IMG/VR virus record: IMGVR_UViG_2695420596_000005
Coordinates: 1 to 28,070 of that record
Reading direction: 5' to 3' (one strand)
From: a virus
Lineage: Duplodnaviria; Heunggongvirae; Uroviricota; Caudoviricetes
Length of the DNA stretch: 28,070 nt
Each line of letters begins with the position of its first letter. Positions within the stretch are counted from its first letter, which is position 1. The position numbers and the translations under genes are program-made. Below the pieces are notes generated by a model. That model was not told the DNA's origin and did not search any database. It saw nothing but the letters and a program-made list of their open reading frames with translations. Below are positions 9,684 to 27,046 of the stretch, piece after piece.

Positions 9684-9877
9684 ACAACTTAGATGCATTA
9701 GCCCTGACATTTGCTAACGCGCTTACAGCAAGAATCATAACCAATCTGACAGCCTACCCGGTGTCAAAATCAGAAGAGCCTTACATTAGAATATGTTAAT
9801 TTGTAGCAAACAAATTTACACACAAATGATTACTGCTGAAATAGCCCCCATAAATGCCATGTCAAAGGATCCATGTT

Positions 9878-10543
9878 ATGAATATGCAAATTTTTATCGC
9901 ACCAGCAGCCACAGTTGCTGCAGTCTGCCTTGCTGCATATTTTGCTTTACGAAATGAACGTAAAAAGAAAGCACTTGAGATTAGAACAACTCAACTAGAT
10001 CGAATATCTGAGCTAGTAAACCGAGCATCTACCAATTTGATGCAATATACAGGTACTCTTGCCTCTATACTGGAAGCGCACGCCAAAGATAATTATCTAC
10101 CGAACAAAAAATTTGACATTAATGTAATTAGCAAATGGAAAGATTGCCTCGATGAGAGTGAGGTCTGGGCGATTGATATACAGCAACTAAGAACATGTCA
10201 GCACAGTCTGGAGTTTCATCGTGAAAAAGAATGGGCTGAATGGAAAAAAATAATTCCACCATTACTTGATAAAATTAACCAATTTTTTCTCATATCTAAG
10301 CCAGGGCAACCTGTTACGTTTATAAATGGCCAAAACAAAACAGCTGATGAACTACTTGTTTTCTCAAGATATTTGAGAAAACAAACAGCAGAAATTGAAT
10401 CAGTACGTCAGCTGTTACTTTCTCAAATGAGAGAGGAATTCATCGAGTTAACTAGCTTTGAACCTGTCACAATGTTTAGCTTATTTAAATCAATAAAGAA
10501 AAATGTCATGCAATTTTTCTGTATCAGTGCTCTTAAAAATTGA
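9878..10543 (+). CDS. Hypothetical membrane-anchored protein (AT-rich accessory gene)
   Basis: Start MNMQIFIAPAATVAAVCLAAYFAL gives one N-terminal hydrophobic helix followed by a charged ~200-aa domain. The region looks markedly AT-rich by eye. P2 has no gene between D and ogr. Confidence 0.6.
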   Translation: MNMQIFIAPAATVAAVCLAAYFALRNERKKKALEIRTTQLDRISELVNRASTNLMQYTGTLASILEAHAKDNYLPNKKFDINVISKWKDCLDESEVWAIDIQQLRTCQHSLEFHREKEWAEWKKIIPPLLDKINQFFLISKPGQPVTFINGQNKTADELLVFSRYLRKQTAEIESVRQLLLSQMREEFIELTSFEPVTMFSLFKSIKKNVMQFFCISALKN

Positions 10544-11092: not shown

Positions 11093-12181
11093 TTACCTTG
11101 ACAAGTGAAAGGTTAGCGCCTCTCCGGAAAAGGAGCAAGTGCTTGTATGGGTCCACCACATATTGCAATTTTTATTCTCTTTTAAAATATATTCCACGGG
11201 CGTCATTAGTGCGAGCGCCTTGTGGGGTCTTTTGCTGTTATACAGCACCAGATATTCCGCCAGCTTCTGGTTAAATAGCGCCAGATCTTCAAAGAGTAAA
11301 ATCTCATTAAATTCAATAAACTGCTCTCTTAACGTCCGGTTAAAACGTTCACAGATAGCGTTCATTTTTGGCGTGTAGGGATAGGTCCAGAGGTGTTTGA
11401 TAGCGGCTTCCTGCAGCGTTTTGTCGAAGTTTCCCAGGAACTCTTTTCCGTTATCTGTGATTATCTGGCTGATACCGACCGGGAACAACCGGGCTGCGCG
11501 GCTGAAGAAGTGATTGACGATATCACTGTTGAGTGACGGCACAGCCAGCGCCAGCGCGTAATTGCTGCATTCGTCGATCATGGTGATGACATAGCGACGC
11601 AGTTCGCCCATTCTGAGCTCAATGGCGTCCATCCCAATGAGCTCACCTGTCTTTACCGGGCGGTAGTGCTTTGGCCTGCGGGGTTTGGCAGACCGCTTTT
11701 TGACAAGCAGTGCCTTCCCCCGCGATCCCAGACGCACAGGTATCATCCGCATTTTATCATGTGCGGCAGCGATCATTCTGCCGATGGTGGAAACACTCGG
11801 ACAGGCCAGATAGCGCTGTTCGCACCAGGGCTTCAGGCGAACAAAAATCTGCTCTTTACCGAGGTTCGGCAGCTCTGTCCTGAGGCGTCGAATCTCTTTC
11901 AGCACATCGGGATGCCAGTGTTTTTTTCGTCGCACCAGAGGTGCCTTACTGTGCGGGATTAGCCCCTCAGGTCCTTCCTTGTTCAGTAACTGACGCCACC
12001 AGTAAAGCGTGCGGCAGGACACGCCAAAGGCTTCAGAAGCTGCAGAAATACCGTGTTTATCCCAGAAGTGCAGAGCCTTCATTCTCATTGTTGCTATATC
12101 AGCCATCACTGAAAGCCTCAACGCATAATCGGCCGTTTGGTAGTACTTAGGATAGCCAACCATCAGATGCTGCATTTGCAT
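11093..12181 (-). CDS. DDE transposase (rve/integrase-core), IS481-family-like
   Basis: 362-aa ORF with N-terminal HTH region, ITDNGKEF and YxPxxN...E motifs typical of retroviral-integrase-type transposases. The last few codons probably read through into flanking DNA. Confidence 0.75.
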   Translation of the reverse strand: MQMQHLMVGYPKYYQTADYALRLSVMADIATMRMKALHFWDKHGISAASEAFGVSCRTLYWWRQLLNKEGPEGLIPHSKAPLVRRKKHWHPDVLKEIRRLRTELPNLGKEQIFVRLKPWCEQRYLACPSVSTIGRMIAAAHDKMRMIPVRLGSRGKALLVKKRSAKPRRPKHYRPVKTGELIGMDAIELRMGELRRYVITMIDECSNYALALAVPSLNSDIVNHFFSRAARLFPVGISQIITDNGKEFLGNFDKTLQEAAIKHLWTYPYTPKMNAICERFNRTLREQFIEFNEILLFEDLALFNQKLAEYLVLYNSKRPHKALALMTPVEYILKENKNCNMWWTHTSTCSFSGEALTFHLSR

Positions 12182-12216
12182 AGTGCAATCTCCCCTTACT
12201 TATCCGGAGGCAATTA
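11110..12216 (-). mobile_element. Insertion sequence, IS481-family-like (~1.1 kb)
   Basis: Single DDE transposase ORF. The right boundary is set where identity to the tfa copy at 940-1220 begins (12217/12218). The left boundary is approximate, set from an imperfect terminal inverted repeat (GTTAGCGCCTCTCCGGAAAAGG versus TAATTGCCTCCGGATAAGTAAGG). Confidence 0.6.
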
Positions 12217-12217
12217 A

Positions 12218-12499
12218 CCATACGATAAATGGGATGGTGAAAAATGGGTGACAGATACTGAGGCACAACATCGTGCTGCAGTAGAAGCGGCAGAAACCAA
12301 GCGCCAGTCACTGGCTGATGCGGCAATGGCTTCCATAAGTCTGATTCAGTTGAAGTTGCAGGCCGGGCGGAAGTTGACGCAGGCAGAAACCACCCGGCTT
12401 AATGCCGTGCTGGATTATATAGACGCGCTGAACGCAATGGATATAAACATGGCACCAGATATCAACTTGCCGGAAATACCACTGGCAGCAGCCAGTTGA
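12218..12499 (+). pseudogene. Truncated tail-fibre assembly gene (3' remnant only)
   Basis: Identical to the 3' part of the tfa at 609-1220 from nt ~940 onward; identity starts abruptly at the IS end, leaving the last ~83 codons without the native start. Confidence 0.75.
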
Positions 12500-12505
12500 A
12501 TATAA

Positions 12506-14119
12506 CTAAGCCGCCCTCACGATATAGTTAAATGCAATATTGCGGGGGCGGGTTTCACTACCACCTGTGTTACCAATACTTCCTCGTGAATGAAGCGTTG
12601 GTGATGGAATCAAACTCCCTCCTGTATTTGTGGCATCAAGCCCCCTGCCTTGCGTATATGTTTTTTTGAAAATTGTGGCCAACTCCCATTCATCCTTTGT
12701 GTCATATCCATCGTTAGCTACAACAATATGGCGGTGTTTTTCCAACATCCCGTTTTGAATGCTCAATAAAGCGCGTGCCGCATCAATTCCTCGCCCATCA
12801 TCCCAGCCACGGATAAATTCACCGCGTAAGTCTGGTAATTTATTGGTGGGGTAAGCCCTTGCCAGTTTTGGGTACTTTTCAGAAGAAAATGCTGCGCCGT
12901 TACATTTCAGCCATCCCGTTGGCGGCGTGGCTGAGGGCCATGGAACGGGCACACCAACGGGCAGTGCAGAGCCTTCCCCCAAACCAAGGTAATCAAGAAC
13001 TCCCTGAGTGCTGGTTTTACCAAGAATGGCACGTCCAACACTTGTCAACGCGGTTAACGCGGCACGATCTGCCCCTGTAAAATATGGGAGTTTATCTGCT
13101 GATGTAGCAAGCTCTGCCAGCGCCGTCAGGGTGGCATCCTTCGGTTGCTTACCCGCAAGCGCGTTAGTCATGGTGGTCGCAAAATTCGGGTCATTGCCCA
13201 GCGCCGCAGCCAGTTCGTTCAGCGTGTTCAGTGCATCAGGTGACGAATCTACAAGTGCGGCAATCGCGGCCATAACGAAAGCCGTGCTTGCGATCTGGGT
13301 ACTATTAGTCCCCTGTGGCGCTGTTGGTGTTGTTGGCGTTCCGGTCAGTGCCGGGCTGTTTAATGGTGCTTTCTTGTTCGTTTCATCCATTACCGCCTTA
13401 ACAGCTTTTGGTGTCGCTGCCAGCGTTTCAGACGTGCTGTTCGTGGCGCTACTGAGCTGAACAATTCCTTTTTGTGTAGTGGTGGCGTTCTGGGCGGTAT
13501 ATTTCCCGTTAGCCAGGTCATATGCAGCCTTAACCGCTTTCGGTGTTGCGGCCAGTGTTTCTGATTCACTGTTAATTGCACTGCTTAACTGAGTAAAACC
13601 TTTTACGGTCAGCGAGGCGTCCGGGTGACGTCGTGACTGTTCGTGCTCTGAGATTTTATCATCCACATATTTGCGGGTTGCCAGAACCACAGACGGGTCG
13701 ATTTTCAGCGTGATGGCTTCGGTGTTCGTGACAACCAGAATCATGCGGATAGTCTGGGTGCGTCCACTGCCTTCCTGCAACTGCGGTTTGTACGTTTCCG
13801 GGCAGTTTGCCACCGCAATGAGTACACCTTCATCATCATAAAGACCAATCTCACGGATCCAGAATCCTCCCTCGTTTTCAGGGATGATTTGCTCCGCAAT
13901 AATCTGGCTCTGATTGTTAGGGTCAACACTCAGAAGATTCAGCGGTGCAATGCGTTTCTGGTTAATCAGTTTTGTTTGTGCAGGGTCTGGTGTTGGTAAC
14001 ACACCATTTGCATCACCAACGGCCATTTGCGTCAGATTCAGCTTACTGCCGAGCATCGTCGCGTTAGCCAGTCGTGCCGCGCCCTGATTAGTCAGAATGG
14101 CGTAGTATTTCACTGTCAT
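12506..14119 (-). CDS. H: Tail fibre protein, P2 gpH-like N-terminus with the Sv2 C-terminal domain
   Basis: 537 aa. N-terminal two-thirds similar to remembered P2 H (AVANCPETYKP, EHEQSRRHPDASLTVKGFTQLSS, TPKAVKAVMDETNKKAPLNSPALTGTPT). C-terminal 158 aa identical to cassette 1227-1703. Confidence 0.9.
   Translation of the reverse strand: MTVKYYAILTNQGAARLANATMLGSKLNLTQMAVGDANGVLPTPDPAQTKLINQKRIAPLNLLSVDPNNQSQIIAEQIIPENEGGFWIREIGLYDDEGVLIAVANCPETYKPQLQEGSGRTQTIRMILVVTNTEAITLKIDPSVVLATRKYVDDKISEHEQSRRHPDASLTVKGFTQLSSAINSESETLAATPKAVKAAYDLANGKYTAQNATTTQKGIVQLSSATNSTSETLAATPKAVKAVMDETNKKAPLNSPALTGTPTTPTAPQGTNSTQIASTAFVMAAIAALVDSSPDALNTLNELAAALGNDPNFATTMTNALAGKQPKDATLTALAELATSADKLPYFTGADRAALTALTSVGRAILGKTSTQGVLDYLGLGEGSALPVGVPVPWPSATPPTGWLKCNGAAFSSEKYPKLARAYPTNKLPDLRGEFIRGWDDGRGIDAARALLSIQNGMLEKHRHIVVANDGYDTKDEWELATIFKKTYTQGRGLDATNTGGSLIPSPTLHSRGSIGNTGGSETRPRNIAFNYIVRAA
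12974..12999. other. hix/gix-like recombination site within the H gene (reverse complement identical to site A)
   Basis: TTCCCCCAAACC-AA-GGTAATCAAGAA is the exact reverse complement of 134-159. Confidence 0.55.
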
Positions 14120-16575: not shown

Positions 16576-16692
16576 GTGTTATAAATCAGGCGCTCATCTG
16601 CCTGGCTGATACCCAGCAGCTCACGTACCGGGTATCGCCATCATCGGTATCGGTGATGTCGTCCTCTGCGGGTCCGGGGTTGGTTCTGGCAA
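16576..16692 (-). CDS. Small acidic ORF (38 aa) in the M-V gap
   Basis: ATG at 16692 preceded by CAGGAGTG Shine-Dalgarno; encodes MSMVARTNPGPAEDDITDTDDGDTRYVSCWVSARQMSA. Not in the supplied track (too short). Confidence 0.2.
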
Positions 16693-19716: not shown

Positions 19717-21468
19717 ATGATTCAGGACGCTTTTGTGCGCCAGCGTGCGCGGCAACTTTACTGGCAGGGTTATCCGCCCGCAGAAATATCACGTCTGATG
19801 GGAATAAACCCGAACACGATTTATGCGTGGAAAAAACGTGACCAGTGGGATGAAACGCCACCCGTGCAGCGTGTCACGCAGTCCATCGATGCGCGTCTCA
19901 TCCAGCTTACTGAAAAACAGAATAAAACAGGCGGTGACTTTAAGGAAATAGACCTGCTGACCCGGCAGCTTAAAAAGCTGCATGATGGCCAGCCGGATGC
20001 GACGGCCGCAGGAAAGAAAGGCCGGGCGAAAAAACTCAAAAATCATTTCACGCCGGAACAGATTGCCGCACTGCGGGAAAAAATCATCAGCAGGCTGGAG
20101 TGGCATCAGCGGGGCTGGTTTGACTCCCTGACCCTTTGCAGGGAAGCCGGGATACGTAACAGGATGATCCTGAAATCCCGACAGATTGGGGCGACCTGGT
20201 ATTTTGCACAGGAAGCACTGCTGATGGCGCTGCGTGACGATGTGGCGCAACCTTACCAGCGTAACCAGATTTTTTTGTCTGCGTCGCGTCGTCAGGCGTT
20301 CCAGTTTAAAAGCATTATTCAGAAGGCCGCGGCTGAAGTTGATGTGGAGCTGAAAGGGGGCGATAAAATCATCCTCTCCAACGGCGCAGAGCTGCATTTT
20401 CTCGGCACTTCTGCTGCGTCGGCACAGTCCTATACGGGCAATTTTTATTTTGATGAATTTTTCTGGGTCAGTCGCTTTGCTGAACTGCGCAAGGTGGCTG
20501 GCGCTATGGCAACCCTCAGCGGACTGCGGCGCACCTACTTCTCCACGCCATCCACCGAAACGCACGAGGCATACGCCTACTGGAACGGCGACCGCTGGAA
20601 TGAGAAAAAGGCCTCGCATAAACGCCAGCGTTTTTCTGTGGACTGGAAAACGCTGCATAACGGGCTTATCTGCCCTGACCGGACGTGGCGGCAAATTGTC
20701 ACGCTGGAAGATGTGGTTAATCACGGCTGGAAACACACTGATATCGACGAAATTCGTGATGAAAACACCGAAGACGAGTTCCTCAATCTCTATATGTGTG
20801 AGTTTGTCCGCGAAGGGGAATCGGCATTTAACCTGAATATCCTGATTGGCTGCGGTGTTGACGGATACGACGACTGGAAAGACTGGAAACCTTTTGCTCC
20901 CCGCCCGATGGGGAATCGTCCGGTATGGATTGGGTATGACGCAAACGGCAGTAGTGGCAACGGCGACAGCGGCGCTGTGTCCGTGGTGGTTCCTCCGGCT
21001 GTTCCTGGTGGCCGTTTTCGAACGGTGGAGACGCGACGCGTTCAAGGGCTGGAGTTTGAAGAACAGGCCAGAGTCATTGAAGAGTTCACGTATCGCTACA
21101 ACGTGGAACACATCGGCATTGATGTGACGGGCGGGAACGGGGAGGCTGTTTATCAGATAGTGAAACGGTTTTTCCCTGCTGCTATTCCGTACACCTTCAC
21201 GCTGTCATCAAAACGGTCGCTGGTACTGAAAATGCTGCACATAATGCGTGCCGGGCGGTGGGAATACGATCGCGCCGAACGCGAGCTGGTCGCGGCCTTT
21301 AACGCCGTGCGTAAGGTGAAAACACCGGGCGGCTTTATCACTTACGAAACGGACCGCGCGAGGGGGATCAGCCACGGCGACCTTGCGTGGGCAACCATGC
21401 TTGCTGTCATTAACGAACCGATTGGCGGCGAAGGAGAAAACGAGCGTTTCACGGTTATGGAGTTCTGA
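19717..21468 (+). CDS. P: Terminase large (ATPase) subunit, P2 gpP-like
   Basis: 583 aa, divergent from O across a ~150-bp promoter region; ATPase-like KSRQIGATW and YFDEFFW motifs; stop overlaps Q start. Confidence 0.9.
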   Translation: MIQDAFVRQRARQLYWQGYPPAEISRLMGINPNTIYAWKKRDQWDETPPVQRVTQSIDARLIQLTEKQNKTGGDFKEIDLLTRQLKKLHDGQPDATAAGKKGRAKKLKNHFTPEQIAALREKIISRLEWHQRGWFDSLTLCREAGIRNRMILKSRQIGATWYFAQEALLMALRDDVAQPYQRNQIFLSASRRQAFQFKSIIQKAAAEVDVELKGGDKIILSNGAELHFLGTSAASAQSYTGNFYFDEFFWVSRFAELRKVAGAMATLSGLRRTYFSTPSTETHEAYAYWNGDRWNEKKASHKRQRFSVDWKTLHNGLICPDRTWRQIVTLEDVVNHGWKHTDIDEIRDENTEDEFLNLYMCEFVREGESAFNLNILIGCGVDGYDDWKDWKPFAPRPMGNRPVWIGYDANGSSGNGDSGAVSVVVPPAVPGGRFRTVETRRVQGLEFEEQARVIEEFTYRYNVEHIGIDVTGGNGEAVYQIVKRFFPAAIPYTFTLSSKRSLVLKMLHIMRAGRWEYDRAERELVAAFNAVRKVKTPGGFITYETDRARGISHGDLAWATMLAVINEPIGGEGENERFTVMEF

Positions 21469-22514
21469 TGAGCAGAAAAAACAAAAAAGTGCGCATGAGT
21501 TCACGCATTGATCTCGCTGATGCGCTCAGGAAAGAATCATCGCTCAGTGCATTCACATTTGATGGTCCTTATCGCCTGACCGGGCATGACCTGCTGGACA
21601 ATATGTACTGTGCTGATAACGGGCGGTGGTATGAAACCCCGGTGGACTGGTACGGTCTGGCAAGAGCAGCCCGGCAAACGTCCTGGCATCAGTCTGCGCT
21701 TTACTTTAAGCGCAATGTATTACTCGGTTGCTACATCCCGCACCCGCTGCTTTCCCGGCAGGATTTCTCGGCGCTGGCGCTGGACTGGTTTGTGTTCGGT
21801 AATGCATTCCTTGAGCTTCGAAGCAATATGCTCGGCGAACCGCTTAAATTACGGCACGCCCTGGCGAAATACATGCGACGCGGAAGCGATCTTGAATCAT
21901 GGTGGTATGTGCAGGATGGTAAGGACGCGTTTCAGTTTCGCCCTGGCAAAGTATGCCACCTGATGAATCCGGATATTAACCAGGAAATCTACGGCATGCC
22001 GGAATATCTTGGCGCATTACTCTCGGCCAGCCTTTCTCATTCGGCGGACATGTTCAGAAAACTGTACTACGACAACGGATCCCACGCCGGGTGCATCATC
22101 TACATCGGTGCAGCGCAGGTAAACCGCGAAAGCATGGACTCCCTGAAAGAAACGTTACAGGGTGCGCGTGGTGGTGGTGCATTTAAAAACGTGCTCATTC
22201 ATGCGCCCAACGGGGGCAAAGAGGGGGTGCAAATTTTGCCGTTCCAGCAGATCACCGCAAAGGATGAGTTCATGAATGTTAAGGCGGCATCCCGTGATGA
22301 TGTACTGGCTGCGCACCGCGTTCCGCCGCAACTGATGGGGGCGATGCCGGGCGAAAAAAGTGCGTTTGGTGATGTGGAGAAGGCCGCGCGGGTTTATGCA
22401 ATTAACGAGCTGATGCCCGTTATGGAGGCTATGAAGCACATCAATGACTGGCTTGGCGAAGAGGTGATCCGCTTTAACCCTTACGCACTGTTAGACACCC
22501 AGCCCACATCCTGA
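21468..22514 (+). CDS. Q: Portal protein, P2 gpQ-like
   Basis: 348 aa, translationally coupled to P, last gene before the cos-proximal non-coding region. Confidence 0.85.
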   Translation: MSRKNKKVRMSSRIDLADALRKESSLSAFTFDGPYRLTGHDLLDNMYCADNGRWYETPVDWYGLARAARQTSWHQSALYFKRNVLLGCYIPHPLLSRQDFSALALDWFVFGNAFLELRSNMLGEPLKLRHALAKYMRRGSDLESWWYVQDGKDAFQFRPGKVCHLMNPDINQEIYGMPEYLGALLSASLSHSADMFRKLYYDNGSHAGCIIYIGAAQVNRESMDSLKETLQGARGGGAFKNVLIHAPNGGKEGVQILPFQQITAKDEFMNVKAASRDDVLAAHRVPPQLMGAMPGEKSAFGDVEKAARVYAINELMPVMEAMKHINDWLGEEVIRFNPYALLDTQPTS

Positions 22515-22542
22515 CGCGCTTCGCTTGTCTGCTGCTTCGTCG

Positions 22543-22567
22543 GGGCATAAAAAATTTATGCCCCGAC
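22543..22567 (+). terminator. Hairpin downstream of portal gene
   Basis: CGGGGCAT-aaaaaattt-ATGCCCCG; no clear U-tract, so terminator function is uncertain. Confidence 0.35.
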
Positions 22568-22983
22568 TCTCCAGCTCCTGTATCAATCAGATAATTTCAC
22601 GACGTCTTCCAGCTTATCGCCATCATCGACGGTCAGGCTCTTACGCAATCCCACCGCGTTGACTGCATGTTCTCGCCGCCTCAGTGCGATTTTGACGGCC
22701 TTATCTGTCACCCCATCAAATCAAAAGCCCTCACGTCTTTTTCACGCTCAGCGTGAGAAATACAGCCATTCTGTTGTGTCGCTGCGACATCGTTCAGGGG
22801 ATGCTATTTACCCCCTGAAACGCGGGCTGTTCCCCCGTCACCTGCGCGCAGAAAAAGCGCGTTTTTTTGTGCACGCACGGATCCCTGACGGATCCAGCCG
22901 CCACGCGGGCCAGAAGGGCAAAAATTCGTTCAAAAAAATTGTGCAAATTTGTGCACTATCGTGCATGTAAATTCATAAAAAAA

Positions 22984-23011
22984 TTACAGAAAAAAGGCCG
23001 CTTTCGCGGCC
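22984..23011 (-). terminator. Rho-independent terminator of the ATPase-protease operon
   Basis: GGCCGC-tttc-GCGGCC stem-loop, 8 nt past the protease stop, followed on the minus strand by TTTTTCTGTAATTTTTTT. Confidence 0.6.
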
Positions 23012-23018
23012 ATAAAAA

Positions 23019-25223
23019 TTACGTGTCGAGAGAAATTTGTGTGCGCAGTTGAATAGGATTCAGAATTGTATATCGCTGGCGAATAACATTATATAAATCA
23101 AAGTCTTTTACCCTTACGCTTATTACCATCGCATATTGCATATCAGGGGCTGAAACTCCCTTAACATGGCGCGAAGAATCTCGGGCATGATACCGTATAT
23201 CAAAAACTGGATCGCTTAATAATGTATCAGCACTGAACTTTTTGCTTCTGTGCAAACAAGTTTCCCACTTATGACCTTCACTCCTACACTCCCTTTCAGT
23301 CTTATACTGGCTTTTTTGACCAAAGAAATCATCTGTATCGGTATCGTCAAGGCCGAATCTTGGGCGGAAAGTTACCTGCATACCGGCCCTTGTATAGTTT
23401 ACTGAATGTTCAGGATCTACTGGGGTTTGAATGCATAAAGTAGCGGTAAGCTCAAATGCTTCGTCAAAGGGAACATCAGGGAATGGGATCGGTGCCCTTA
23501 AATATTTATTTTTTGCTAATGAACCATAGTAAATTACTGTAGCAGTATCATTTGGACAATCGATTAAAACGTTAGGATCCTCACTAAACCGTCCCCAACC
23601 GATATGTTCACGCGAATATTTTCTTGATGTTTCAGCATGATGAACAAGCAACGCTTTCAATGCAATGGTGTTCAATGGAGTTCCTGATAGAGCCGCAACT
23701 CCAGCGGCCGTTCTCAATGCTAATGGAGAGGCATAACTGGTTCCTTGAACTCCAACTATAGAACCAAGCAGAGGGTTGTAAGTGTAAAAAGGCTCGTCGT
23801 CGCTTCCACCAAAAATAACACCATCAGGTTTAACGAATCCGGGGCTTCTGCCTGGCCCAATACAGCTATATGGTGCCCGCCCCCATTTTTCACCGCTACG
23901 ATCAGCAGCACCAATCGCTAGCGCGTTTACCATATCGGAAGGAGGTTGTATTCTCGCTGCATCACCGTCCTCATTGCCATCATTCCCAACAGCAACAGTA
24001 AGTAATATCCCATGCTTAGCACAGATTTGGTCTAAAACAGCAGTCCATACATGAACCTCATCATCACCAATTGGAAGATGAGGACCAATACTTAGATTAG
24101 CGAACTTATAGTCACCACTATCAAGAACGGACTGTATTTTCTTAAGGACATCAAATAAATCCCAATTGCCATTGTCACCTGATGTCGGTGAAAGAACTCT
24201 ATAATGATCTACATTCATAAACGGTCTTTTAAAAGAAGGTGCATTTTCCTCGACACGTCCGAATAAGAAAGTGGATGTCACTTCATTACCGTGCTGCAAT
24301 AATAATCCGCTTGTTTCTTTGGTGTCTGGATACACGTATTCCGTAACCCAATTACTCAAGTCAGCTGTCCCCAAGCCACCATCAAAAATGGCAATACGTT
24401 CGGATTCAAGAACAGCTTTAGAATTAGGGAGCTCCGGTGTAACTATATTAGATAACTTTCTGACAATGTTCGGCTGAGTACACCTGAGAGACGGCATCGG
24501 CCGCACAACGCGGATTAATGAAAAATCGAGTGTTTTTTTCATATCTTCAGGTCGCGCGTGTGCAACGATGAAAGTCAGCCCACCAACTTGGATTCTACTT
24601 TTGTAATCAACAGAGACATCATATTGTGCCGCATAGCTAATATAGGCTTTAACGATATCATCGTCTTCAACCCCAGCATGAAGAACCACTTCAAATTTTA
24701 TCAAATCACTTTTCGCATGCTCAAAATTGCGTGCTCTCTCTTTTCCTTCAAAAAAGCTAACACTTTCAATTTCGATCAAATCCTTTTGTACGCCCTTCGG
24801 AGCTGTAGGGGAATTTAAAATTTCCTTAAATCTTATAACGGCATCATCATCACCGCTAACAAACAGTTGCGCCGTTACTAAGTCCTTATTCTGATCGCAC
24901 TGACGTGCCGCTTTCCGTGGGCGAATGATTACCTGACGGCTGCCGACATCCCGTAAACCTGTCGCTCTAAGCAATCCTTCCGGAAAGTAGCTTTTACCCA
25001 AAAACGCTGGGTGTAAAGTTAAATTGAATACACTCTCCCCCCTTGGCTTAGCCGCATCATCCAAACTGCGAAAGCGTGAGAGTAAAGTATCAATCTCTGG
25101 GTTTAAATGCTCCCTTACTTCTTCAAGAGTATAGGGATAGCGCTTACCATCCCTTCCTTTAGGCAAAGGTTCCTTTTTTGTCAGAACATGACCGTTACCT
25201 AAAAGTAAGTTCCTTTCCATCAT
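23019..25223 (-). CDS. S8 subtilisin-family serine protease with extra N- and C-terminal domains (IetS-like)
   Basis: 734 aa. Catalytic-triad motifs in subtilase order: Asp (RIAIFDGGLG), His (LLQHGNEVTS), Ser (GTSYASPLA), plus VAVGNDG. About 270 aa N-terminal and 250 aa C-terminal have no motif I recognise. ATG overlaps the upstream ATPase stop (ATGA). Confidence 0.8.
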   Translation of the reverse strand: MMERNLLLGNGHVLTKKEPLPKGRDGKRYPYTLEEVREHLNPEIDTLLSRFRSLDDAAKPRGESVFNLTLHPAFLGKSYFPEGLLRATGLRDVGSRQVIIRPRKAARQCDQNKDLVTAQLFVSGDDDAVIRFKEILNSPTAPKGVQKDLIEIESVSFFEGKERARNFEHAKSDLIKFEVVLHAGVEDDDIVKAYISYAAQYDVSVDYKSRIQVGGLTFIVAHARPEDMKKTLDFSLIRVVRPMPSLRCTQPNIVRKLSNIVTPELPNSKAVLESERIAIFDGGLGTADLSNWVTEYVYPDTKETSGLLLQHGNEVTSTFLFGRVEENAPSFKRPFMNVDHYRVLSPTSGDNGNWDLFDVLKKIQSVLDSGDYKFANLSIGPHLPIGDDEVHVWTAVLDQICAKHGILLTVAVGNDGNEDGDAARIQPPSDMVNALAIGAADRSGEKWGRAPYSCIGPGRSPGFVKPDGVIFGGSDDEPFYTYNPLLGSIVGVQGTSYASPLALRTAAGVAALSGTPLNTIALKALLVHHAETSRKYSREHIGWGRFSEDPNVLIDCPNDTATVIYYGSLAKNKYLRAPIPFPDVPFDEAFELTATLCIQTPVDPEHSVNYTRAGMQVTFRPRFGLDDTDTDDFFGQKSQYKTERECRSEGHKWETCLHRSKKFSADTLLSDPVFDIRYHARDSSRHVKGVSAPDMQYAMVISVRVKDFDLYNVIRQRYTILNPIQLRTQISLDT

Positions 25224-26302
25224 TTAATCCCCCACTTTTGTAATTTATTCGCGATTGTTGGATGTGAAACACCAACTAATTCAGCTATCTTCCTATTTGA
25301 AAAACCGTCAAAATGATATTTAATTATATTGAGATCATTATCGCTAAACTCATCCAATGAAACCCTCTCCGTAATTACGGCTTCTATTAATGAGCTTTCA
25401 AATGGAATATTTCTAAGTACCTCATTCTTTTTGGAGAAATTCAAAATACGGTTAATGATGGCAAAGGACATGCCATCTAATAATGGTGCAAGTTTTTTAG
25501 ATAGTTCAGGTTCAATATTATGATTGACTAAATATCTATCTATCAGTTCTACTGATGGCATATTAAATTTAAGGATGTGCTCAAATCGACGCCAAACAGC
25601 CGGATCTAAGATATCAGGGTGATTAGTCGCAGCAACAAGAAGCGAGGTCGCTGGCCACTCATCTATGGTCTGTAGGAGTACAGTAACTAAACGTTTTAAT
25701 TCTCCAACGTCCCTGTCATCATCACGTCTTTTTGCAACAGCATCAAATTCATCAAGCAAAAGGACACATGGTTTCTCTTTGGCATAATCCATAACGGATT
25801 TAATATTATTACCTGTTTTTCCCAAAAGAGAACTCATTACAGATGAGAGATCCAATGTTAAAAGAGGTAAATTTAACTTTGCAGCAAGCCAATGTGCGGA
25901 CATTGTTTTGCCTACGCCTGGCGGGCCAGAAAGTAAAACCGTCTTCACAGGTTCAAGACCAGCTTTGAACAAAGAAACCGCATTCTCTCTTTCGTTAACA
26001 ATTGACTCCAGCTTCTTTGAGATATCCGTATTCCATACAGGTTCTTCAACAATTGCGTTGACAGATGTTTCCTGCAAAAGGTTTCGTCTGGAGTCTCCAT
26101 CCACAGGCATAGGAGCCTTACTAGATGCCCCACGTAATACTGTTCCCTCAGCAACTAACGAAGCCAGCTTAGAAGCTAAAGCCTCATCATTTTTACGGAT
26201 GTTGTTAATCATCTTTCTGCATAGGAGTGTAAATGCATTTGCGTTGCCTTTGATGCCTTGCTCGATGAGTTTGAAAAGTTCATCCTCCCTCACGTTTACC
26301 AT
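25220..26302 (-). CDS. AAA+ ATPase with C-terminal helix-turn-helix (IetA-like)
   Basis: 360 aa. Walker A LLSGPPGVGKT, Walker B VLLLDEFDAV, sensor-1 LLVAATNHP. C-terminal NRKIAELVGVSHPTIANKLQKW resembles an HTH. GGGGG Shine-Dalgarno before ATG 26302. Confidence 0.8.
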   Translation of the reverse strand: MVNVREDELFKLIEQGIKGNANAFTLLCRKMINNIRKNDEALASKLASLVAEGTVLRGASSKAPMPVDGDSRRNLLQETSVNAIVEEPVWNTDISKKLESIVNERENAVSLFKAGLEPVKTVLLSGPPGVGKTMSAHWLAAKLNLPLLTLDLSSVMSSLLGKTGNNIKSVMDYAKEKPCVLLLDEFDAVAKRRDDDRDVGELKRLVTVLLQTIDEWPATSLLVAATNHPDILDPAVWRRFEHILKFNMPSVELIDRYLVNHNIEPELSKKLAPLLDGMSFAIINRILNFSKKNEVLRNIPFESSLIEAVITERVSLDEFSDNDLNIIKYHFDGFSNRKIAELVGVSHPTIANKLQKWGIK

Positions 26303-26359
26303 AAAACCCCCAATAAAACATCAGCTTGTGTAAGCTGGTAACTACATTAATGAAAATCA

Positions 26360-26396
26360 TTGACTAATGTTACCACTCTTGCTGGCGTAATTCAAA
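26360..26396 (-). promoter_or_regulatory. Candidate sigma-70 promoter for the ATPase-protease operon
   Basis: On the minus strand TTGAAT (-35, 26395-26390), 17-bp spacer, TAACAT (-10, 26372-26367), ~60 nt upstream of the ATPase start. Found by eye only. Confidence 0.3.
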
Positions 26397-26680
26397 GAGT
26401 ATCCTTACTTTTTTACTGTATGGATAATCAGCATAAAATCTATCCAGTTGGGTTACTCGAACATACTGTCAATACTTGTTTCCAACGATTGATCAGTTCT
26501 ACAGTTTTATCTCCTTCACTTGTGTTGGCAGCATGCTTATTCCTGAACCAGCTCGATTAACCCATGCTCATCGCGGTAGGGATAGAACGCTGCTAAACGC
26601 TCAAAGTCTGCCTGTTCGTGTGTGTTCAGGACTTTTGCCATGTGTGATAACCTGCGCTATCTGTGGTTGTTTGTGACTTG

Positions 26681-26732
26681 GTGTACTTATAAGTACACCT
26701 TGCGCGCAAGCTTAGTGTACTTATAGGAACAC
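26681..26732. promoter_or_regulatory. Operator-like repeats upstream of the repressor gene
   Basis: Perfect 18-bp palindrome GTGTACTTATAAGTACAC (26681-26698) and near-repeat GTGTACTTATAGGAACAC (26715-26732), centres 34 bp apart, ending 6 bp before the C start codon. Confidence 0.4.
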
Positions 26733-26737
26733 TGTCA

Positions 26738-27046
26738 ATGCTTATCGGTGAAAAAATTAGAGTGATTCGTGAATCAGAGGATTTAACGCGCGAAGAATTT
26801 TGCGGCCTGATTGATGTGCCTATCGGCACTTTGCGTCGTTATGAAACGGGGCGGATTGAAAACATAGGGGGCGAAGTGCTTATCAAGATTGTTAATCACC
26901 CTCGCTTTTTTAAGTACATGAATTGGCTTATGACGGGAAAAACAAATGAGGCTGCTGGGCAGATCAGTCCCTCTCTCTCCCCTGATGGGCCAGAAAACAC
27001 ATCGTCTTCTCAAAAATCCCGCAAGACTGGTACACAGCCCGGTTAA
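26738..27046 (+). CDS. C: Immunity repressor, P2 C-like (HTH)
   Basis: 102 aa; EKIRVIRESEDLTREEFCGLIDVPIGTLRRYETGR...NHPRFFKYMNWLMTGK aligns with remembered P2 C; directly upstream of, and co-oriented with, the integrase. Confidence 0.8.
   Translation: MLIGEKIRVIRESEDLTREEFCGLIDVPIGTLRRYETGRIENIGGEVLIKIVNHPRFFKYMNWLMTGKTNEAAGQISPSLSPDGPENTSSSQKSRKTGTQPG

Follow-up and report, generated by a model that had tools for sequence, protein, structure and literature searches.

We conclude, with a probability of about 85%, that the gene pair described here belongs to the IetAS family of toxin-antitoxin/abortive-infection modules and travels as accessory cargo of a P2-like (Peduoviridae) prophage from the E. 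coli E2348/69 lineage, where it occupies the gpA-gpQ hotspot near cos. The window, i.e. the whole 28,070-nucleotide stretch of viral DNA that was analysed, contains the complete pair on its minus strand, and the features discussed below are collected in Table 1. The cassette is already known, and the first-pass annotation of this DNA overrated its novelty. Indeed, the products of ietA and ietS are identical to WP_000248600 and WP_000970615, respectively, both from E. coli E2348/69. In the catalogue of Rousset et al. 2022 (Cell Host Microbe, PMC9122126, Table S5A/B), these two proteins make up system 7 for the P2 gpA-gpQ hotspot and bear the label 'ietAS (Gao et al, 2020)', and we matched the identity to the Table S5 entry at both N-termini and at the IetA C-terminus. 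System 7 has 400 occurrences among the 18,150 loci of that study (PMC9122126, Table S5). Since standard defence-finder profiles already detect the cassette, it carries little weight as a discovery.

Table 1. Coordinates of the ietAS cassette, its putative expression signals and its neighbours in the window
Feature	Position	Strand	Description
Portal gene (gpQ homologue)	21468..22514	+	Conserved hotspot flank; from the ORF listing
Intrinsic terminator	22986..23011	-	6-bp all-GC stem, GAAA loop, then T run
ietS	23019..25223	-	734-aa S8 subtilase, putative toxin/effector
ATGA stop/start overlap ietA/ietS	25220..25223	-	Sequence reads ...ATT AAA TGA / ATG ATG GAA
ietA	25220..26302	-	360-aa classical-clade AAA+ ATPase, putative antitoxin
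GGGGG Shine-Dalgarno-like run	26307..26311	-	4 nt upstream of the ietA ATG; read from the sequence
Palindrome CAGCTT-ACAC-AAGCTG	26322..26337	-	Between promoter region and RBS
Weak sigma-70 candidate TTGAAT-17 nt-TAACAT	26367..26395	-	8/12, found by eye; not significant, under the scan threshold
cox-like gene remnant	26537..26641	-	34-codon ORF spanning the junction, 27 of its codons native
Deletion junction relative to E2348/69	26558..26560		Record positions 1868686-1875236 (6,551 bp) missing
C-type immunity repressor (HTH_3)	26738..27046	+	Context, outside the cassette

Profile-HMM and PADLOC searches gave IetA and IetS matches over nearly the full length of the two proteins, in agreement with the IetAS-like identity proposed earlier. 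The four best PADLOC matches of the ATPase were all IetA models, headed by PDLC02196 (3.6e-89), with residues 7-356 of 360 aligned to profile positions 5-370 of 374. The protease matched IetS models only, the best being PDLC02197 (6.6e-41; residues 22-707 of 734 against profile positions 24-718 of 749), together with five further IetS models. The adjacent and co-oriented arrangement of an AAA+ gene and then an S8 protease gene is the one that defines ietAS in PADLOC and Gao_Iet in DefenseFinder. In NCBIfam, the best families were IteA_antiphage (NF042959) and IteS_antiphage (NF042956), both with nearly full-length alignments, and both equivalog cut-offs were missed (253.1 bits versus 510 for IteA, 115.7 versus 900 for IteS). 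As these scores lie far under the cut-offs, function is transferred across a large distance. Judged by sequence, the P2-borne pair is a divergent IetAS subfamily and no equivalog of the NCBIfam reference pair. The first-pass annotation had raised the idea of a divergent relative, and the same picture is obtained from the SNF2-linked E. coli type (ietHAS/E24377A), whose ATPase shares 31% identity with the P2-borne IetA (E 1e-46) and whose protease shares 22% identity with IetS over the catalytic domain, the D/H/N/S motifs being aligned.

IetA is made of an N-terminal region (residues 1-105), an AAA core (~110-260), a lid and a weak C-terminal HTH (335-359). The Pfam AAA model matched at 9.6e-31 and HTH_50 reached 26.7 bits for a cut-off of 27, a sub-threshold score, and the presence of a C-terminal HTH is thus only weakly supported. 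The alignment of IetA with the D2 domain of p97 shows that Walker A (G126-T133, including K132), Walker B (181-187, including D184/E185), sensor-1 N227 and the arginines R238/R239 (Arg finger) correspond to their p97 counterparts, confirming that Walker A, Walker B and sensor-1 are complete in the first protein, as had been read by eye. IetA thus keeps all the nucleotide-binding and hydrolysis residues. Processive unfolding by IetA is uncertain because its pore-loop-1 position reads L-L-G and lacks the aromatic residue normally found there. TRIP13 models, considered in view of CBASS TRIP13/HORMA systems, matched the AAA core only (43-47 bits), no HORMA or cyclase genes were found nearby, and this candidate was rejected.

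The AAA core is also 30-40% similar to those of p97, FtsH and PAN, and the record of Enterobacter phage phiT5282H calls the ATPase gene ftsH, as would suit a horizontally acquired housekeeping-type AAA+ protease system involved in FtsH/Lon/Clp/PAN-like quality control. We consider this explanation barely credible, given that the FtsH, PAN and Cdc48 models cover only the ~150-residue AAA core with 60-85 bits for cut-offs of 500-1000, that protease domains of the M41, Lon or ClpP type are absent, that the 734-aa subtilase encoded alongside is of a kind specific to the IetS family, and that the distribution is patchy and confined to mobile elements. A confident match to a housekeeping pair, the outcome named in the first-pass annotation as speaking against a defence cassette, was therefore not observed.

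The N-terminal region of IetS contains two ferredoxin-like beta-alpha-beta-beta-alpha-beta units (~63-157 and ~175-242), which are propeptide-like, resembling those of subtilases. They are followed by the catalytic domain (~271-545) and by a C-terminal beta-rich domain (~555-730). The S8 Asp/His/Ser triad noticed at first reading corresponds to D281, H311 and S496, and together with the oxyanion Asn (N414) it is intact on the subtilisin fold and invariant across 40 homologues. A PDB sequence search for solved IetA or IetS returned generic AAA and subtilase matches only. Compared with the copies of phage phiT5282H, dN/dS is 0.13 for ietA and 0.07 for ietS; both genes are intact and under purifying selection.

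The ORF listing places ietA first and ietS second on the minus strand. The 4-bp overlap of the two genes announced previously was borne out by the sequence at 25223-25220 and suggests that they are translationally coupled; the genes of distant homologues also overlap, by 8 bp. A strong hairpin, GGCCGCGAAAGCGGCC, then TTTTTT (23011-22996 on the minus strand), starts 8 nt past the ietS TAA stop, so that a terminator does stand directly 3' of the second gene. The AT-richness of the cassette, earlier estimated by eye, agrees with the computed values: its GC content is 0.415 (41.5%) versus 0.524 (52.4%) for the remaining window and 0.547 for the adjoining structural genes, and GC3 is 0.33/0.34 for the cassette genes versus 0.60 for terminase and portal. 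The composition of ietAS is foreign to the phage backbone. The promoter attributed to the cassette found no support. Indeed, a sigma-70 consensus scan of the minus strand upstream of 26302 gave no site of at least 9/12, and the number of sites around the cassette equals the shuffled expectation. The palindrome located upstream of ietA could serve the IetA HTH as an operator, or form a hairpin in the 5'-UTR. In phiT5282H its arms are CAACTTA/TAAGTTG, both having changed in such a way that pairing is preserved, although this single comparison is weak evidence.

The gpA-gpQ slot of P2-like phages is a recognised reservoir of anti-phage systems (PMC9122126). In the full-length E2348/69 prophage and in phiT5282H, ietAS is placed between gpA and the portal gene, which upholds the argument that the pair occupies the P2 cargo hotspot. 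The same argument had placed the cassette between the immunity repressor and cos/portal. The portal flank is correct, whereas the apparent contact with the repressor is due solely to the absence of the 6.5-kb early operon from the window. The missing 6,551 bp, present in the 100%-identical E2348/69 prophage, comprise ParR, ParM, gpA, the greater part of cox and the small early genes. Putative rearrangements of the window lie at positions 11146-12217, about 16633 and 26559. What is left of the cox-like gene, read from the sequence and mapped onto the E2348/69 annotation, is co-oriented with ietAS and lies ~230 nt upstream of it. Searching IMG/VR for the deletion junction of the window gave no match. 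The cos site was not located: a search of the whole window with a P2 cos pattern, which may be wrong, gave no match within 3 mismatches.

That the pair adjoins the portal and terminase genes, and that PHROGs has a family for each protein (phrog_3757 and phrog_3964, both annotated as unknown function), could point to a phage morphogenesis or lysis function, such as a head-maturation protease with its chaperone ATPase. However, the cassette was found in 32 complete E. coli genomes versus 1,149 matching the portal flank (~3%), its genes are convergent with the adjoining terminase and portal genes and have their own terminator, and their foreign composition speaks against this function as well. 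Moreover, homologues are not confined to phages but also occur on integrative elements and chromosomal islands, neither signal peptide-like nor scaffold features were seen, and the family matches are all to defence or toxin-antitoxin systems. We therefore hold a structural or lytic role to be highly improbable. Homologues with 43-53% identity keep the pair of AAA (360-367 aa) and S8 (732-733 aa) proteins, one of them being carried by an integrative element that also encodes a relaxase and ArdC, and another being found beside a CBASS operon.

A different function is suggested by the neighbourhood of the cassette in other genomes, since ParR is directly upstream of ietA, with ParMR adjoining, in 31 of the 32 cassette-bearing complete E. 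coli genomes. ietAS could thus be mainly a maintenance module, acting by addiction or post-segregational killing together with ParM/ParR, for a plasmid-capable P2-like element. About one quarter of P2-like phages have partition genes, perhaps for plasmid maintenance (PMC9122126), and IetAS of pTiC58 (as its first described role) and SgiAT of SGI1 are experimentally shown stability toxin-antitoxin systems. However, phiT5282H has ietAS without ParMR, ParMR is deleted from this window while ietAS is kept intact, and the homologue found beside CBASS belongs to a defence-island setting. In addition, toxin-antitoxin activity and abortive infection are compatible, and other IetAS systems defend against phage. 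A predominantly maintenance role is possible but, in our opinion, doubtful, and we retain the toxin-antitoxin/abortive-infection module as the preferred reading.

What is known of related systems allows a mechanism to be proposed for this module. In the IetAS of pTiC58 (as cited) and in the SgiAT of SGI1, the IetS component acts as the toxin and the IetA component as the antitoxin (PMC5006074; PMC13069673). Cloning of ietHAS with a mutated ietA did not succeed, an outcome that its authors interpreted to mean that the antitoxin is active IetA, and defence requires protease activity in the same work (PMC13069673). Bacillus IetAS aborts infection upon expression of the phage protein SPbeta YosG (10.1101/2022.08.27.505566). 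By analogy, in a lysogen, IetA, probably a hexamer, would spend ATP to hold IetS inactive, either occluded by its prodomain or sequestered. A protein or an activity of a superinfecting phage would disable or divert IetA, and the freed IetS would cleave essential host and/or phage proteins, so that the infected cell would halt its growth ahead of the release of phage progeny. The weak C-terminal HTH of IetA may in addition mediate autoregulation of the operon through the palindrome that precedes the RBS.

A more elaborate scheme, which we regard as unlikely, is that the P2-borne subtype is a dual-purpose IetAS with a distinct mechanism. IetS would be a cytoplasmic zymogen with an uncleaved tandem propeptide-like region, and IetA a self-repressing dead-man's switch with a DNA-binding HTH, obliged to hydrolyse ATP without pause so that the zymogen stays closed, the whole being paired with ParMR for both prophage stabilisation and abortion of superinfection. 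This scheme is drawn from the fold similarity, the sub-threshold HTH match, the single compensated palindrome and the ParMR linkage. If true, the cassette would be an energy- or phage-sensitive switch and the prophage a plasmid-capable P2-like element.

In the searchable literature we found no phage assay of the P2-borne ietAS subtype, and this cassette does not seem to be part of the set that Rousset et al. 2022 tested against phage (PMC9122126). The only E. coli ietAS with phage data found in the literature is that of ECOR52 (Wu et al.), and the primers published for it have no match in this window or in the E24377A-type locus. Only limited protection has been described in the literature for E. 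coli ietAS cloned alone. The P2-borne ietAS is a convenient model for studying how a subtilase toxin is held in check by an AAA+ ATPase, because it is compact, helicase-free and native to a tractable host, and because phiT5282H offers a natural phage vehicle.

Finally, we compared the cassette with known systems. P2 old/tin and other gpA-gpQ cargo occupy the same cos-proximal slot but are unrelated in proteins and mechanisms. In ietHAS (Liu et al., NAR 2026, PMC13069673), an essential SNF2 helicase gene lies upstream, and the ietAS locus of E24377A, in a chromosomal island, likewise has an SNF2 helicase and a type III R-M neighbour; by contrast, no helicase ORF was found beside the P2-borne pair in the window or in the E2348/69 and phiT5282H loci. 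The IetA of E24377A has 326 aa and the pore loop F-L-G, whereas the P2-borne IetA has L-L-G and their alignment ends near residue 301. IetA/IetS from Agrobacterium plasmid pTiC58 (Yamamoto et al. 2009, as cited) and SgiA/SgiT from Salmonella Genomic Island 1 (SGI1, PMC5006074) resemble the present pair in combining an AAA-ATPase, there the antitoxin, with a subtilisin-like protein, there the toxin, on a mobile element; both systems are linked to element maintenance, and the E. coli cassette usually adjoins ParMR. The Bacillus-type IetAS of Gao et al. 2020 (as cited) shares the gene order, AAA+ then S8 protease, and differs in that the IetA studied here has a weak C-terminal HTH; its Bacillus cereus homologue works through abortive infection (10.1101/2022.08.27.505566). 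System 7 of Rousset et al. 2022 (PMC9122126) has identical proteins in the same hotspot and in the same host species. The cassette is no different from it, and only the context differs, ParMR and the early operon being deleted here.

Both open reading frames of the cassette were recovered at the positions reported in the first-pass annotation (see the table below). Reading of the minus strand at the ietA/ietS junction shows that the ATGA overlap at 25220-25223 is genuine, with ...ATT AAA TGA overlapping ATG ATG GAA. The terminator located directly after the second gene is also present, as a perfect 6-pair GC stem (GGCCGC GAAA GCGGCC) followed by six T's, 8 bases past the ietS stop. A candidate promoter private to the cassette had also been proposed, but a consensus scan revealed no minus-strand promoter matching at least 9/12 upstream of ietA, and promoter-like sites in this region showed no excess over shuffled sequence; the top candidate by eye, TTGAAT-17-TAACAT at 26395-26367, matches 8/12. 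A palindrome, CAGCTT-ACAC-AAGCTG, lies at 26322-26337 and is retained in Enterobacter phage phiT5282H by way of a change on both arms (single comparison). At 41.5% GC, the cassette lies below the remaining window (52.4%) and the neighbouring structural genes (54.7%), and its third-position GC is 0.33-0.34, compared to 0.60 for the terminase/portal genes. The AT-richness previously judged by eye is thus upheld by computation and points to foreign cargo.

Features of the window discussed in the text
Feature	Position	Strand	Description
ietA ORF	25220-26302	-	360 aa
ietS ORF	23019-25223	-	734 aa
Two direct repeats of TATAAGTACAC	26683-26727	-	between C-repressor gene and cox' remnant
IS-type transposase ORF	11093-12181	-	362 aa; rve, rve_3 and HTH_32 domains
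229-aa ORF	9854-10543	+	very AT-rich (local GC 0.36-0.42); between truncated gpD-like gene and ogr

The four top PADLOC matches of IetA are IetA models (best 3.6e-89, residues 7-356 of 360), and Pfam returned AAA (9.6e-31) with a borderline HTH_50 at the C-terminus (26.7 bits, cut-off 27). IetA can be aligned to AAA modules of the p97, Cdc48, FtsH and PAN type, with Walker A K132, Walker B D184/E185, sensor-1 N227 and R238/R239 at the expected positions, confirming that the Walker A, Walker B and sensor-1 motifs are complete; its pore-loop-1 position reads L-L-G, not aromatic-hydrophobic-Gly. For IetS, the sole PADLOC matches are IetS models (best 6.6e-41, residues 22-707 of 734), and Pfam places Peptidase_S8 at residues 288-544 (4e-17). 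D281, H311, N414 and S496 are invariant in 40 full-length homologues (41-100% identity) and line up with the D/H/N/S motifs of IetS from E. coli E24377A, in agreement with the S8 Asp/His/Ser triad motifs recognized in the first reading. In the N-terminal region of IetS, resemblance to subtilase propeptides is interspersed with resemblance to ferredoxin-like folds of a generic kind (S6 and ACT domains, for example), and there is moderate evidence for a retained propeptide-like region. A PDB sequence search gave no close relative of either protein. The best NCBIfam families are IteA_antiphage for IetA (253 bits) and IteS_antiphage for IetS (116 bits), both scores being far under the respective equivalog cut-offs (510 and 900). 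Judged by these profiles, the pair is a member of the IetAS family belonging to a divergent branch, in line with the IetAS-like reading.

Positions 22500-26559 of the window match, at 100% identity, a P2-like prophage carried by E. coli O127:H6 E2348/69, in which ietA is annotated as WP_000248600 (AAA family ATPase) and ietS as WP_000970615 (S8 family peptidase). There, one flank of the cassette consists of ParM/ParR and the replication endonuclease gpA, and the other of the portal gene. In P2-like phages, a defence hotspot has been defined at the gpA-gpQ locus (Rousset et al. 2022, PMC9122126). Table S5A of that study describes the same two proteins as 'AAA/HTH_50 + Peptidase_S8', often with StbA and Plasmid_stab_B, and Table S5B lists them as system 7, with 400 occurrences and the label 'ietAS (Gao et al, 2020)'. 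The cassette is already known as the ietAS of the P2 hotspot.

The same cassette is found between gpA and the portal gene in phiT5282H (Peduoviridae), with 95.8% nucleotide identity. Between the E2348/69-type copy and that of phiT5282H, dN/dS is 0.13 (ietA) and 0.07 (ietS), indicating that both genes are maintained by selection. Among 5,426 complete E. coli genomes, only 32 carry the cassette while 1,149 match the flanking portal region, as would be expected of cargo that varies at a hotspot. In homologues at 43-53% identity, a 360-367-aa AAA gene and a 732-733-aa S8 gene are still paired with overlapping reading frames. A distant Enterobacter pair lies within an integrase/relaxase/ArdC element, and the Aquipseudomonas alcaligenes pair (53% identical) has a CD-NTase and Cap15 CBASS operon immediately downstream (locus L008, 8590-10298), which is a defence-island context. 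About 260 bp upstream of ietA are common to E2348/69 (locus L001, 11804-12181), where they follow ParR, and phiT5282H (locus L002, 11479-11742), where they overlap the gpA 3' end. Thus, the cassette seems to move together with a leftover piece of the gpA 3' end, a hint as to how recombination exchanges hotspot cargo.

IetAS was originally described as a plasmid-stability toxin-antitoxin of pTiC58 with a protease toxin and an ATPase antitoxin (PMC5006074; PMC13069673), and among enterobacterial relatives SgiAT of Salmonella SGI1 has been tested (PMC5006074). A Bacillus cereus ietAS acts by abortive infection triggered by the SPbeta protein YosG (10.1101/2022.08.27.505566). In the helicase-containing variant ietHAS, defence needs protease activity and an ietA mutant was uncloneable; the IetAS mechanism was still called unknown in 2026 (PMC13069673). 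In the searchable literature, no phage assay was found for the subtype that P2-like phages carry. By analogy with these homologues, IetS would be toxic, IetA neutralising, and the protease needed for defence. The parts seen at the locus are an intact ATPase, an intact protease with the propeptide-like region, coupled expression, and a mobile-element and defence context. In the lysogen, IetA would spend ATP keeping IetS inactive; a protein or activity of a superinfecting phage would disable IetA, and the freed IetS would then cut essential proteins and abort the infection. Autoregulation by the IetA HTH may take place at the 26322-26337 palindrome. The main alternative, which is not exclusive of this defence role, is that the pair is chiefly an addiction module beside ParMR (ParM and ParR), as 31 of the 32 cassette-bearing genomes have ParR immediately upstream of ietA.

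The window and the E2348/69 prophage are not colinear. Between 26559 and 26560, 6,551 bp of the otherwise 100%-identical E2348/69 prophage are absent (NC_011601.1 1868686-1875236). ParR, ParM, gpA (the replication endonuclease), several small early genes and the greater part of the cox-like gene are lost, which leaves a 34-codon cox' fusion ORF. What remains of the element would be unable to replicate or excise. The early-promoter/operator region now reads straight towards ietAS. The location of the cassette beside the immunity repressor therefore holds for the window, where it results from this deletion, and not for E2348/69, where ParM/ParR and gpA occupy that side. The TATAAGTACAC repeats resemble a direct-repeat operator such as that of P2-type immunity regions, and would overlap the early promoter. 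A second loss of about 2.9 kb at ~16629-16637 (E2348/69 1885168-1888043) affects the gpL 3' part, X, holin, endolysin, LysB/LysC, R and the S 5' part. Neither deletion junction occurs contiguously in any of the 5,426 complete E. coli genomes searched, and the 26559 junction had no match in IMG/VR; the window may represent a degraded prophage from a strain not yet sampled or an artefact of assembly or construction. The transposase gene, with flanks at 11146 and 12217, connects the tail-fibre gene to the hok/ogr end of the prophage, and the prophage halves around it are in opposite orientation compared to E2348/69, which suggests an IS- or invertase-mediated rearrangement or a chimeric assembly. 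The tail-fibre/tail-fibre-assembly segment occurs in several partial inverted copies (1-2150 and 12217-12990; 92-99.9% identity to E2348/69 1891550-1893700), corresponding to an invertible host-range segment beside a recombinase family (putative invertase) gene. The cassette is unaffected by these rearrangements. Finally, the 229-aa ORF, whose E2348/69 counterpart is WP_001057121.1 (hypothetical protein) and which has no Pfam or PADLOC match, may be a second cargo gene.

Among E. coli systems, the ietAS of ECOR52 gave limited protection alone and synergy with Zorya II against T3, in a study that remarks on the frequent prophage carriage of ietAS (Wu et al.); this construct could be linked neither to the present type nor to that of E24377A. 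The E24377A locus (L004, NC_009801.1 3330029-3340792) is ordered SNF2 helicase, IetA, IetS, DNA methyltransferase and DEAD/DEAH helicase, the last two being type III R-M-like, which agrees with the reported co-localisation of ietAS and RM III. Its IetA and IetS share just 31% and 22% identity with the present proteins. Whereas that locus is of the SNF2-linked (ietHAS) type, the P2-borne pair is helicase-free, and its remaining value is to provide a compact E. coli version for solving the IetAS mechanism.
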